A stretch of DNA of 8,093 nucleotides, from IMG/VR virus record IMGVR_UViG_2630968500_000006. One strand, written 5' to 3'. Shown one piece after another: positions 1 to 8,093 of this stretch. Both the position numbers and the translations under genes were made by a program. Position 1 is the first letter of the stretch; the number at the start of each line of letters is the position of its first letter. The stretch is from a virus. Taxonomy: Duplodnaviria > Heunggongvirae > Uroviricota > Caudoviricetes. The notes beneath the pieces were generated by a model. The model had not been told where the DNA came from and ran no database searches. It saw nothing but the letters and a program-made list of their open reading frames with translations.

Positions 1-37
1 AGCTTGGGAAGAAATGACCTGCTTATTCGCACCTTCC
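1..37 (+). mobile_element. IS5-family insertion sequence, terminal inverted-repeat end only (element body lies outside the window to the left)
   Basis: Positions 22-37 read CTTATTCGCACCTTCC, the reverse complement of GGAAGGTGCGAATAAG, which I recall as the IS5 terminal inverted repeat (16/16). It is followed at 38-41 by CTAG, the preferred IS5 target tetranucleotide. The 20 bp inside the repeat differ from my recollection of IS5 itself, so this is a family-level call. Only 37 bp are visible. Confidence 0.55.
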
Positions 38-491
38 CTAGGGACTTTTCCGGGTTGTCCGGGCTAGGAATGGGAACTTTAAATCCTTCCAGCATGGGTT
101 TTCTTATCGAAATGGCGGTAGCACCCACACTTTTTGTCAAGATGTACTGCTTAAAGCTAGATGACATGAAGTAATACAAAAACTTCGTGTCTACGGCATT
201 AGTTGTGATACGAATTCTATACGCCCTTTGATGTAGAGCATATTTCCCCTCAACATAGTGAAATATGTCGCCAATTCCACCTTCACCAGGAATGACTATT
301 GCTACCTCATCAAATTCAAAGGTATCTGACTTCAAGATATTCTTTGAGCGAACATAGAATGGATAAATTCCATTTTCGCTTTCATCCTGACGATTTGAGC
401 TTCCAGTACCGATATCTGCCATAGAACCCAATGTTACCCACTCAACCTCAACCCCATCCAACAGTTTTTCCAGATAGCTCAGCTCGCTCAT
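38..491 (-). pseudogene. hsdS: Type I restriction-modification specificity subunit HsdS, N-terminal target-recognition domain fragment; reading frame runs into the IS5-like end after the motif PIPSPDNPEKSL
   Basis: Hand translation of the minus strand from ATG at 491-489 gives [151 protein letters not shown], then continues into IS-derived sequence (GKVRISRSF...). The start overlaps the hsdM stop in an ATGA arrangement (488-491). The N-terminus (MSE.SYLEKLLDGVEVEW) and the P.PDNPEKSL motif match my recollection of EcoR124-type HsdS. The ORF track omits it because there is no in-window stop. If the IS call is wrong, this is simply a partial hsdS CDS running off the window edge. Confidence 0.7.
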
Positions 492-2050
492 GCCTGTACC
501 TCTCTGCCTTCAATTCTAGCCACGATCGCATCAATGTCTTGGCGTAACTGGTCGATTTTGCTGACCGTGGTTTTCAGCTCTGCATTCAACTCAGCGATAT
601 CGATAATTTCGCGAGTATCTTTCGCTTCCACATAGCTGCTCACCGACAGGTTATAGTCATTCGCTACAACGGCTTCAAACGCGACAGATTTCGCCAGATG
701 AGCAACATCTTCCTTGCTGGCAAATACCTGCATAATCTGTTCGATATGGGCGTCGGTCAGGATATTGTTGTTAGTCTCTTTTTTGAACAGTTCGCTGGCG
801 TCAATAAACTGAACTTTGGTATCCGTTTTATGCTTAGACAGCACCAGAATGTTTACTGCAATGGTGGTGCCAAAGAACAGGTTCGGTGCCAGTGAAATTA
901 CGGTTTCGACATAGTTATTATCGACCAGATACTGACGGATTTTCTGCTCTGCGCCGCCACGGTAAAAAATACCCGGGAAGCAGACAATCGCAGCACGACC
1001 TTTGGCCGAAAGATAGTTCAGCGCATGTAGTACAAACGCAAAGTCAGCTTTGGATTTGGGGGCCAGAACGCCAGCCGGGGCAAAACGCTCATCGTTAATC
1101 AGCGTCGGGTCATCGCTGCCAATCCATTTCACCGAATACGGTGGGTTAGATACGATGGCGTCAAACGGTTTTTCATCTCTGAAGTGCGGCTCAGTCAGTG
1201 TATTACCCAGCTTGATATCAAACTTGTCGTAGTTGATATTGTGCAAAAACATGTTCATACGCGCCAGGTTATAGGTCGTATGGTTGATTTCCTGACCGAA
1301 AAAGCCTTCTTCGATGATGTGGTTATCAAACTGTTTTTTCGCCTGCAACAACAGTGAGCCGGAACCCGCTGCCGGGTCGTAGATTTTGTTAACGCTGGTC
1401 TGCCCGTGCATAGCCAGTTGTGCAATCAGCTTGGAGACGTGCTGCGGTGTAAAGAACTCGCCGCCTGACTTACCGGCATTTGCCGCATAGTTAGAAATCA
1501 GGAACTCATAGGCATCACCGAACAGGTCAATCTGATGTTCGTTGAAGTCACCAAGTTTTAACCCTTCAACCCCTTTCAGAACCGCAGCCAGGCGGGCATT
1601 TTTATCTTTAACGGTGTTACCCAGGCGGTTACTGGTGGTATCGAAATCAGCAAACAAACCTTTGATGTCAGCTTCTGAAGGATAACCGTAAGCAGAACTT
1701 TCGATAGCAACGAAGATGCTGTTTAAATCTGCATTCAGTCTGTCATTAGTATTTGCTTTCGCCGCTACGTTGCAGAAAAGCTGACTGGGGTAGATGAAGT
1801 AGCCTTTAGTTTTGATGGCATCGTCTTTAATGTCATCAGTAATTACGCTGTCATCCAGTTTCGCATAACAGATACTGTCATCACCGGCTTCAATATAGCT
1901 GGAAAAATTTTCGCTGATAAAACGGTAGAAAAGTGCGCCCAGAACGTATTGCTTAAAATCCCATCCATCGACCGAACCCCTGACATCGTTAGCAATTTGC
2001 CAGATTTGACGATGAAGCTCTGCACGTTGTTGAATACTTGTCATTTTCAT
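488..2050 (-). CDS. hsdM: Type I restriction-modification N6-adenine DNA methyltransferase subunit HsdM (EcoR124-like, type IC), 520 aa, apparently intact
   Basis: 520-aa ORF from the track. It carries the SAM-binding motif [10 protein letters not shown] and the catalytic motif NPPY typical of N6-adenine methyltransferases. Length and N-terminus ([25 protein letters not shown]) fit my recollection of EcoR124-family HsdM. Translationally coupled to hsdS downstream. Confidence 0.93.
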
Positions 2051-4084: not shown

Positions 4085-4126
4085 ATTGCTCTAATGTATT
4101 GCTATTTCTTTAGTTGAGGGTATTAT
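4085..4126 (+). promoter_or_regulatory. C1-repressor operator-like 17-mer (4085-4101, ATTGCTCTAATGTATTG) overlapping a sigma70-like promoter (-35 TTGCTA 4099-4104, 16-bp spacer, -10 TATTAT 4121-4126) upstream of lpa
   Basis: 14/17 match to the P1 C1 operator consensus ATTGCTCTAATAAATTT as I recall it. The operator overlaps the -35 of a well-spaced promoter. P1 lpa (gene 10) is known to be C1-controlled. Confidence 0.55.
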
Positions 4127-5904: not shown

Positions 5905-7418
5905 TGGCCAGAAGTTGCGTAACGGATCCACGTTGGCGCGAGCTGGTGGCGCTATATCGTTATGACTGGATTGCGGCCGCTGATGTTTTGTTCGGCAAAA
6001 CACCTACCTGGCAGCAGGATCTGATTATTGAGTCTGTGCAGGAACAGGGTAGCAAGACATCTGTTTCGTCTGGTCACGGTACCGGGAAATCAGACATGAC
6101 TTCTATCATGATCATGTTGTTCATAATCATGTATCCCGGTGCCCGCGCCATTATCGTTGCGAACAAAATTCAGCAGGTAATGACCGGTATATTCAAGTAC
6201 ATCAAGATAAACTGGGCTACTGCCACCAGCCGTTTTCCATGGCTTGCTGATTATTTTGTTCTGACAGAAACCGCTTTCTATGAGGTTACTGGTAAAGGTG
6301 TATGGACTGTAGTACCGAAGGGCTTTCGTCTGGGAAGTGAAGAAGCTCTCGCCGGTGAACACGCAGATCATCTTCTGTATATTATCGATGAAGCCTCCGG
6401 TGTCAGTGATAGAGCTTTCGGTATCATCACCGGTGCTCTTACCGGACAGGATAACCGCATCTTATTACTGTCACAGCCTACACGCCCAAGCGGCTATTTC
6501 TACGATACTCACCATAAACTGGCCAAGCGTCCTGGTAACCCAGATGGCGTTTATACGGCGATCACGCTTAACAGTGAGGAATCACCGCTGGTAACGCCAG
6601 AATTTATCAAAATGAAGCTGGCGGAGTACGGCGGGCGTGATAACCCTATGTACATGATTAAGGTGCGCGGCCTATTCCCTAAATCACAGGACGGCTTCCT
6701 TCTTGGACGTGATGAGGTTGAACGTGCAACGCGGCGGAAAGTTAAGATTGCCAAAGGATGGGGCTGGCTTGCATGTGTGGACGTTGCTGGTGGTACGGGA
6801 CGGGATAAGTCAGTTATCAATATCATGATGGTGTCCGGCCAGCGAAATAAACGCCGTGTAATCAACTATCGAATGCTGGAATACACAGACGTTACAGAAA
6901 CGCAGCTTGCCGCCAAAATTTTCGCAGAATGTAATCCTGAGCGATTCCCCAATATCACCATAGCGATAGATGGAGATGGCCTGGGTAAAGCAACAGCGGA
7001 TCTGATGTACGAGTATTATGGTATTACCGTACAGCGTATACGCTGGGGTAAAAAGATGCATAGCCGTGAAGATAAGAGCCTGTACTTTGATAAACGTGCT
7101 TATGCCAACGTTCAAGCCGCAGAGGCCGTAAAATCTGGTCGTATGAGACTGGATAAGGGTAATGAAACTATTGAGGAAGCGTCGAAAATCCCTGTAGGGA
7201 TTAACTCCGCAGGTCAATGGAAGGTGATGAGTAAGGAGGATATGAAGAAAAAACTCAACCTGCACTCACCAGACCATTGGGATACATATTGTTTCGCTAT
7301 GCTGGCGGATTATGTTCCCCAGGATGAAGTGCTTAGCGTCGAAGACGAAGCGCAGGTTGATGAGGCTCTGGCATGGCTTAATGAATTAATATTTGCTCTA
7401 ATAAATTGTGTTTTTTAA
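5904..7418 (+). CDS. pacB: PacB, terminase large subunit (ATPase/nuclease), 504 aa
   Basis: 504-aa ORF translationally coupled to pacA. P-loop/Walker A-like SGHGTGKS and Walker B-like [10 protein letters not shown]. Position and size as in P1. Confidence 0.93.
7392..7408. promoter_or_regulatory. C1-repressor operator-like 17-mer TTTGCTCTAATAAATTG overlapping the last codons of pacB
   Basis: 15/17 match to ATTGCTCTAATAAATTT. It shares the 10-mer TTGCTCTAAT with the lpa operator at 4085-4101. Two occurrences of such a 10-mer in 8 kb are very unlikely by chance. Confidence 0.45.
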
Positions 7419-7533
7419 CTACCGATGTTACATTGAGCCTGACCTCTTGCGCCTTGAGGCATTTTCGGTTTATGCTTATCAGGCACCTCATTAAAACGGG
7501 TGCCGGGATTGGCCTCCCGCTTAAGTCTAAGGC

Positions 7534-7567
7534 GATACAGACGCCGCTCGCGTCTTTTTTTTGTATC
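7534..7567 (+). terminator. Candidate rho-independent terminator downstream of pacB: GACGC-CGCTC-GCGTC hairpin followed by T8, nested within an outer GATACA/TGTATC inverted repeat
   Basis: Inner stem 7540-7544 / 7550-7554, then eight T (7555-7562). Outer arms GATACA 7534-7539 and TGTATC 7562-7567. On the minus strand the run is A-rich before the hairpin, so it is oriented for plus-strand termination. Confidence 0.5.
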
Positions 7568-7727
7568 GGCGTACACGCACACCTCTACAATGGTGGGCTG
7601 TATGGGGCTACCTTCGGGTAGGCTGGTTACCTTGGACGCCAGTAAGGCCAACTCCGTACAGTCCACCGCCAGCAAGATTGGTCTCTTCTGCGGTGGTTAC
7701 ATACCAACGTCTAAGGAGGCTGCCAAT

Positions 7728-7949
7728 ATGGCTACTATCCCTACCCCAACTCATCCTGAATTTATCTGGCGCTTTTACTCCTGCCAAAAACGTCACTATC
7801 ACTTCGTTATTGCACCAACAGAAGATGAGGCCCGCTCTCAGCTTCCTGACGCCCCATGTATTTTCTCTGCCCGTTTTTCCACTGATTCACGCAATTCTCT
7901 CAGTTACTGGTGCCTCCCTGTTAACGCTTCTGCTCAGGAGGGACTATGA
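7728..7949 (+). CDS. Hypothetical small protein, 73 aa
   Basis: ATG at 7728 preceded by a consensus Shine-Dalgarno AAGGAGG (7713-7719) with 8-nt spacing. It is the 3' part of the 149-aa track ORF 7500..7949, whose upstream portion spans the terminator and lacks a ribosome-binding site. Product MATIPTPTHPEFIWRFYSCQKRHYHFVIAPTEDEARSQLPDAPCIFSARF... has no motif I recognise. Confidence 0.4.
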   Translation: MATIPTPTHPEFIWRFYSCQKRHYHFVIAPTEDEARSQLPDAPCIFSARFSTDSRNSLSYWCLPVNASAQEGL

Positions 7950-8056
7950 GAACGTCATTAGTCACCCGTGAAGAGATGATCGAGGCAATTGAACAGCACA
8001 CTGCCTGTATCAGTACCAGGGATATACCAGGCGTTATTGCCAACTACTTCATGTGA
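7946..8056 (+). CDS. Hypothetical very small protein, 36 aa, translationally coupled to the preceding ORF
   Basis: ATG 7946-7948 overlaps the upstream stop (ATGA) and is preceded by GGAGGG (7938-7943). Product MRTSLVTREEMIEAIEQHTACISTRDIPGVIANYFM. All three plus-strand frames close between 8054 and 8093. Not in the ORF track, presumably because it falls below the length cutoff. Confidence 0.25.
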   Translation: MRTSLVTREEMIEAIEQHTACISTRDIPGVIANYFM

Positions 8057-8093
8057 CCTGCCCCCACGATTAGATACAACACTCAGTTAGTAA

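Follow-up and report, generated by a model that had tools for sequence, protein, structure and literature searches.

A homologue of icd and an ISSen4-interrupted antirepressor gene form the end of what is very probably an immI-type immunity operon in a P1-like phage-plasmid

The c4-icd-ant system was described between 1990 and 1993. The work on P1 and P7 behind the C4 mechanism is reportedly that of Citron and Schuster 1990, and Riedel et al. 1993 is said to be the primary paper on the coupling of icd to ant. In the annotated P1 record (AF234172), icd is listed as 'apparently required for expression of ant'. The Icd protein of P1 inhibits FtsZ, with residues 12-51 being sufficient for FtsZ-dependent inhibition of division and eight residues being predicted to contact FtsZ, and homologues of Icd are toxic when overexpressed (PMC11897509). 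Coupling logic like that of icd and ant has been shown for orf45 and anrP of Gifsy-1 (PMC4825925), and an immunity module situated between pacB and c1 has already been noted for RCS47 and pTZ20_1P (PMC6906374).

The DNA analysed here, a stretch of 8,093 nucleotides referred to below as the window, is 100% identical to unnamed1, a P1-like phage-plasmid of Escherichia coli strain G5 (NZ_CP060066.1; megablast of positions 7400-8093). Positions 7400-8093 were matched by 1031 plasmid records, 274 of which cover at least 80% of this part, and its first 654 bases match hundreds of P1-like phage-plasmids at 99% or more. The genes are arranged in the order hsdM, phd, doc, DUF968, lpa, pacA, pacB, the icd/ant' region, c1, coi-like, cra-like and cre-like. 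Very probably, the region between pacB and c1 of this P1-like phage-plasmid is an immunity operon of the immI type whose last gene is broken. Read along the plus strand, it opens with a C1 operator-like site and two putative promoters, which are followed by a leader of the IsrK type holding the a1 and b1 boxes and a terminator, and then by C4, the a2 and b2 boxes, icd and ant (Table 1). Judged by its sequence, the operon is a disrupted member of the P1-type immI group, in which every expected element other than an intact antirepressor gene was found. The presence of icd and ant' is in itself already known and annotated in RefSeq, which gives for NZ_CP060066.1 an Icd-like protein, an Ant pseudogene, an ISSen4 transposase, the rest of ant and then c1.

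Elsewhere in the window, a gene for the HsdM subunit of a type I restriction-modification system (488-2050, minus strand) adjoins phd. P1 itself has type III res/mod genes, annotated at a different P1 locus, and defence cargo seems to have been exchanged in the lineage of the window. The genuine toxin-antitoxin genes of the window are phd (2227-2448) and, overlapping it by a single base, doc (2448-2828).

Table 1. Features of the region downstream of pacB, with the pairing-box alleles of the window and its relatives (positions are those of the window)
Feature	Coordinates	Strand	Basis or remark
C1 operator-like site TTTGCTCTAATAAATTG	7392..7408	+	equivalent of P1 Oc4/Op51
P51a/P2c4-like promoter, putative, C1-controlled	7406..7434	+	-35 TTGTGT 7406-7411; -10 TACATT 7429-7434
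P51b/P1c4-like promoter, putative, constitutive	7447..7476	+	-35 TTGCGC 7447-7452; -10 TATGCT 7471-7476
IsrK-type leader RNA	7483..7560	+	Rfam RF01394 isrK, 60.8 bits against a gathering score of 50, full-length
a1 box TTGGCCT	7509-7515	+	in leader
b1 box GTCTAAGG	7525-7532	+	in leader
C4 antisense RNA	7586..7673	+	Rfam RF01695, 75.9 bits against a gathering score of 45, full-length
b' box CCTTGGACG	7630-7638	+	loop of C4 hairpin 2
a' box AGGCCAA	7645-7651	+	single-stranded junction of C4
a2 target box TTGGTCT	7678-7684	+	icd leader
b2 target box CGTCTAAGG	7708-7716	+	overlaps icd Shine-Dalgarno TAAGGAGG 7712-7719
ORF1 (73 codons)	ATG 7728 to TGA 7947-7949	+	73 aa
icd, by homology	7728..7949	+	P1 Icd homology, NF033153, RefSeq WP_000201261.1, dN/dS
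ORF2 (36 codons)	ATG 7946 to TGA 8054-8056	+	36 aa
ant', by homology	7946..8053	+	first 36 codons of 372-codon ant; stop 8054-8056
ISSen4 (IS3 family) end, terminal 40 bp	8054..8093	- (transposase strand)	comparison with uninterrupted relative
P1 allele			a' CTGTCAA; b' CACTAACG
P7 allele			a' CTGCTAA; b' CACAATCG
RCS47 allele			a' GTCTCAA; b' CCTTTG
D6 allele			a' GTCTCAA; b' CCTTTTG
Ss-VASD allele			a' GTAGCAA; b' CCTTGATTG
Window allele			a' AGGCCAA; b' CCTTGGACG

A preliminary description of this DNA had reported a 73-aa and a 36-aa ORF, each preceded by a Shine-Dalgarno sequence and overlapping in an ATGA, and both were recovered exactly where it had placed them. The Shine-Dalgarno of ORF1 is separated from its ATG by 8 nt, while that of ORF2, AGGAGG (7936-7941), has a short spacer of 4 nt, and the stop of ORF1 and the start of ORF2 share the ATGA at 7946-7949. 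It had also been noted that all frames are shut from the second stop to the edge of the window. This was borne out by a stop codon in every plus-strand frame between 8054 and 8090 (TGA 8054, TAG 8071 and TAG 8088), and the frames are shut there because the sequence is the end of ISSen4. A 222-nt ORF with an identical ATGA junction is also present in P1, P7, RCS47, pAR_0372 and many E. coli plasmids. Three minus-strand ORFs (7415-7675, 7608-7802 and 7921-8043) were rejected as overlapping structured RNAs or icd; such ORFs are unannotated in all records, except for the 'hypothetical' orf84 of D6, which is antisense to C4.

The C1 operator-like site that heads the operon differs from the P1 consensus by 2 mismatches, the chance expectation being 0.03 at three mismatches or fewer. 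It lines up without any offset with the operator Oc4 annotated in P1, and it overlaps the last codons of an extended pacB. The two putative promoters were placed by aligning the region with the P1 promoters annotated in AF234172, which, like Oc4, were defined by experiment; a generic consensus promoter scan of positions 7300-8093 returned no plus-strand promoter. The hexamers of the P51a-like promoter both align with the annotated hexamers of P1 P2c4, and the overlap with the operator is as in P1. For the P51b-like promoter, the -10 hexamer aligns exactly with TATAGT of P1 and the -35 hexamer lies one column off relative to TTGACC of P1, and TAT..TT of the -10 region is invariant in RCS47, D6 and Ss-VASD. 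Transcription from this promoter is predicted to start near 7483, the position at which the Rfam isrK model begins.

The extension of pacB was traced to its stop codon, the TGA of relatives being TTA in the window (7386-7418); PacB is 504 aa long in the window and 494 aa in relatives, and the additional 10 residues cross the operator-like site. A second C1 operator-like site, ATTGCTCTAATGTATTG, with 3 mismatches, lies at 4085-4101 between the DUF968 gene and lpa, where it would fit regulation of the late-promoter activator by C1, as happens in P1.

The IsrK-type leader is closed by an intrinsic terminator, formed by a stem at 7539-7555 followed by a T-run, and is overlapped by a weak match to the c4-a1b1 model at 7470-7523; the spacing of its a1 and b1 boxes is similar to that in P1. 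Alignment with P1 C4 predicts that the mature C4 RNA extends from about 7592 to 7670, and in its minimum free energy fold (-41.6 kcal/mol) both a' and b' are free of base pairs. The boxes were located by an ungapped complement search limited to the unpaired segments of C4, which replaced whole-molecule RNAduplex predictions, these having given long and uninformative forced duplexes. The a2 box pairs with a' over 7 bp, including one G-U, and occupies the same position relative to the 3' end of C4 as in P1, while b2 pairs with b' over 9 bp, again including one G-U; the annotated b2 of P1 likewise overlaps the icd ribosome-binding site. Since there is a G-U in each pairing and a2 is one base off a1, pairing at a2/b2 may be weaker than in P1.

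All six alleles compared (P1, P7, RCS47, D6, Ss-VASD and the window) have matching a1/a2 and b1/b2 boxes at equal relative positions. Because a'/b' and their targets covary across these six alleles, the pairing of the boxes appears functional rather than due to chance. The a'/b' sequences of the window seemingly represent a distinct specificity allele. That they differ from those of P1, P7, RCS47/D6 and the Stx phages would imply a separate class of immI specificity, with a bearing on immunity to superinfection among P1-like plasmids, which are very common in Enterobacteriaceae.

It could be envisaged that the C4/leader region is instead protein-coding, through an orf45-like or 'Ash family' frame of about 119 aa that runs from ATG 7590 into icd. 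Indeed, this frame is open from 7500 through C4 into icd and reads MVGCMG... from ATG 7590, PGAP has called 7602-7703 a partial pseudogene of an 'ash family protein', and 'orf45' has been reported to be translated across the equivalent RNA of Gifsy-1 (PMC4825925). However, the stretch corresponds to a full-length and high-scoring C4 RNA with the stable fold given above, and no Shine-Dalgarno precedes ATG 7590, whereas a consensus Shine-Dalgarno stands 8 nt before 7728. The start of icd homologous to 7728 is the one annotated in the P1 record, RefSeq P7, D6 and G5; RCS47 carries the 7728-type ORF unannotated, and Ss-VASD begins a different gene at that ATG. Furthermore, it is the nucleotide sequence of orf45 that is conserved and not its amino-acid sequence (PMC4825925). 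A coding role for this region is thus very unlikely, and the 7590 frame, with no Shine-Dalgarno and a very stable fold, probably stays open only as a side effect of conservation of the RNA.

Downstream of the C4 RNA, the product of ORF1 had been described as resembling nothing recognisable, as had that of ORF2. Both are nevertheless named in RefSeq, as 'host cell division inhibitor Icd-like protein' for ORF1 (WP_000201261.1) and as 'phage antirepressor Ant, incomplete' for ORF2. The BLASTP comparison that the preliminary description had proposed was run, and the product of ORF1 was found to be 80% identical to P1 Icd across 66 residues with no gaps. It also matches the NCBIfam model NF033153 (phage_ICD_like) at 49.8 bits against a cutoff of 25. 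This match covers residues 12-51, the same span as the core of P1 Icd that suffices for inhibition of division; a search of Pfam gave no match for either the 73-aa or the 36-aa product. At the residues predicted to contact FtsZ, seven of the eight are identical in ORF1 (R15, Y24, E32, A48, R49, S57 and W61), and the remaining one, T47, is replaced by S. Comparison with P1 gave a dN/dS of 0.088, with synonymous sites saturated, and comparison with RCS47 gave a dN/dS of 0.021 (12 synonymous changes and 1 non-synonymous change). The gene is under strong purifying selection in the frame of ORF1. On the strength of this homology, ORF1 is assigned as icd, the gene for a host cell-division inhibitor. 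The frames and start codons originally proposed for the two ORFs proved to be those of real coding sequence, as indicated by homology, by dN/dS in the case of icd and by the match to the N-terminus of Ant in the case of ORF2.

ORF2 itself is, by its sequence, the 5' stub of the antirepressor gene ant and not a natural gene. Over all 36 residues its product matches, without a difference, the N-terminus of the 372-aa Ant of pAR_0372 (NZ_CP027133), and its homology with the corresponding part of P1 Ant1 is clear. In uninterrupted relatives, the 372-aa protein is annotated as 'phage antirepressor KilAC domain-containing protein'. Its identity as Ant rests on BLASTP, which found 56% identity between the Ant of an intact relative and P1 Ant1, and on the ORF6N (middle part) and ANT/KilAC domains that Pfam detected in the same protein; an NCBIfam search returned no match for Ant. 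RefSeq treats 7946-8053 as a pseudogene, 'phage antirepressor Ant; incomplete; missing C-terminus'.

Alignment, base by base, with a plasmid whose ant is uninterrupted showed that homology ends at 8053 and picks up again 1221 bp further. The intervening 1221 bp have inverted termini, TGACCTGCCCCC and GGGGAGCAGGTCA, lie between two copies of (C)ATG and encode on the opposite strand an ISSen4-family IS3 transposase that is annotated with a programmed frameshift. With its inverted ends, target duplication and transposase of this kind, the insert is the IS3-family element ISSen4. The TGA that stops ORF2 is made up of the first three bases of ISSen4, and ORF2 is short because ISSen4 cut ant after codon 36. 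This junction was found in a single genome among 5,426 complete E. coli genomes, and in one of the 1,031 matching plasmids. ORF2 thus shows how the end of an insertion sequence can make a plausible small gene, the stop being supplied by the insertion sequence and the Shine-Dalgarno and ATGA by the real gene.

An ORF running in frame from the end of ISSen4 into ant codons 37-372 lies at 98211-99284 of NZ_CP060066.1, where its annotation is that of an intact antirepressor of 357 aa (WP_251000229.1); no obvious Shine-Dalgarno was found ahead of it. If expressed, this fusion would release Ant from C4/icd control, and there may be residual Ant activity through this putative ORF. From the sequence, the antirepressor output of the G5 plasmid would be expected to be either lost or uncoupled, with C4 and Icd remaining intact. 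The ant::ISSen4 insertion should disable or uncouple antirepressor-driven induction and may help to fix the element as a plasmid.

The ATGA arrangement had earlier been likened to that of a toxin-antitoxin or regulator pair, in which the 73-aa and 36-aa products would form a self-contained module and act on each other. Such pairs do typically combine an ATGA overlap with strong Shine-Dalgarno sequences, and the toxicity of overexpressed Icd homologues (PMC11897509) could be taken as a further point of agreement. However, the 36-aa ORF exists only through the ISSen4 cut of a 372-aa gene, in one of the 5,426 genomes, and a conservation test found that it is not conserved as an independent gene. 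Neither ORF matches a toxin-antitoxin family in Pfam or NCBIfam, the Icd family is controlled by the C4 antisense RNA and not by a protein partner, and the real pair of the window is phd-doc (2227-2828). To our knowledge, there is no system in which Ant neutralises Icd. The toxin-antitoxin reading, and with it that of a small-regulator pair, is extremely improbable. What stands of the proposed module is the coupling junction, which is as in P1, together with a product that is toxic and another that is a regulator by homology. As a pair the two ORFs are not conserved: the 222-nt icd with its ATGA junction recurs in P1, P7 and RCS47, and the 36-aa ORF does not. It might also be supposed that ORF1 and ORF2 are open merely by chance, in a spacer after pacB that encodes nothing. 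Short ORFs are indeed common (84 of at least 30 aa were counted across the whole window), but homology to a characterised protein, the match to a curated family, a dN/dS far below 1 and occurrence in hundreds of plasmids reduce the likelihood of this to practically nothing.

Taking the region as an immI-type operon, its mode of action can be proposed by analogy with P1/P7 and Gifsy-1. The C4 RNA would be cut from the operon's own transcript and would pair with a2/b2, and this pairing would occlude the ribosome-binding site of icd and block its translation. Ribosomes would have no independent access to ant, which would be translated by those terminating at the icd stop within the ATGA, so that blocking icd would silence ant as well. 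Were C4 to be outcompeted or titrated, Icd would be made, bind FtsZ and arrest division; in intact relatives Ant would also be made, inactivate the C1 repressor and push the element towards lytic growth. In the G5 plasmid, the coupled ribosomes would yield only the 36-residue fragment of Ant. With a leader terminator placed before c4, regulation may be closer to the IsrK logic of Gifsy-1 than to that of P1.

In the window (7483-7673), RCS47, D6, Ss-VASD and Gifsy-1 alike, an RNA of the IsrK family immediately precedes one of the C4 family. In Gifsy-1 (NC_010392; 34131-34329 of L010, minus strand), matches to isrK, c4-a1b1 and C4 are contiguous upstream of anrP. Placing +1 at position 34316 of NC_010392 reproduces all eight mutation coordinates published for this locus (PMC4825925). 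On this numbering, the compensatory pairs G28:C162 and G31:C159 reported between IsrK and orf45 (PMC4825925) map to an a1 box (+26..32, TTGGCGT) and an a' box (+158..164, ACGCCAA). The a' box sits inside the C4 match, and 'orf45'/STnc1160 (45 aa) overlaps the C4 RNA. We regard the chances as even that the activation by a small RNA described for IsrK/orf45 of Gifsy-1 and the antisense repression by C4 described for P1 are one module described twice. The P1 work on C4 goes uncited in the Gifsy-1 study (PMC4825925), and IsrK/orf45 and C4 figure as separate systems in a review from 2025. Our literature search, the scope of which lay outside most subscription journals, where the link may already be known, returned no paper connecting STnc1160 or IsrK to C4. 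If the two are indeed one module, the terminated IsrK-type leader of the window (Table 1) would be a decoy that titrates C4, and icd-ant would be governed by a switch between a small RNA and an anti-small RNA instead of by simple antisense repression. Recognising IsrK as the a1/b1 leader of the C4 module could then reconcile two separate literatures.

Two relatives showed further variation around these RNAs. Phage vB_EcoM-673R5 (L004, 3001-3251) is 99.2% identical to the window in this part, with isrK below the gathering score and a match 3 bases shorter, and its leader may carry a small deletion. In the Stx-type Shigella phage Ss-VASD, a second antirepressor gene is found downstream of the isrK-C4-Rha module, and a match to sRNA-Xcc1 (79.6 bits; L007, 2524-2607) lies just upstream of this gene.

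Among known systems, type II toxin-antitoxin pairs such as phd-doc share with this locus the overlapping ORFs, the strong ribosome-binding sites and a product that is toxic on overexpression. They differ in that the second ORF here is incomplete and that control is by an antisense RNA, with no protein antidote. Stx-type phages have the same leader, C4 and ribosome-binding site, but these drive a Rha-type antirepressor directly with no icd in between, and the mosaic joint falls a few codons into the gene.

The isrK-orf45-anrP locus of Gifsy-1 in Salmonella (Hershko-Shalev et al. 2016, PMC4825925) has in common with the window a terminated leader of the IsrK family, a C4-family RNA and an antirepressor coupled through AUGA. 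In contrast to the window, Gifsy-1 lacks icd, and the antirepressor is coupled there to 'orf45', an ORF lying across the C4 RNA; the window has a separate and conserved icd, with its own Shine-Dalgarno, between C4 and ant.

With immI of P1 and P7, the window shares the C1 operator, the two promoters, a1/b1, C4 and a2/b2 over the icd ribosome-binding site, as well as a 73-codon icd that overlaps ant in an ATGA, Icd being 80% and Ant 56% identical. The window differs from P1, however, in its IsrK-type leader, which has an intrinsic terminator between b1 and c4, whereas the P1 leader has no terminator and matches the c4-a1b1 model rather than isrK. The a'/b' boxes also differ, being AGGCCAA and CCTTGGACG in the window and CTGTCAA and CACTAACG in P1. 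Furthermore, ORF6N forms a middle domain of the window-type Ant, the operon is flanked by pacB and c1 where that of P1 adjoins sim/kilA, and ant is cut by ISSen4. RCS47 and pTZ20_1P (PMC6906374) share with the window the entire order pacB, isrK and C4, icd, ant and c1, together with a nearly identical Icd. They differ from it in having an intact ant and other a'/b' boxes, and judging from these boxes the specificity of immI presumably differs between the window and the RCS47 type.
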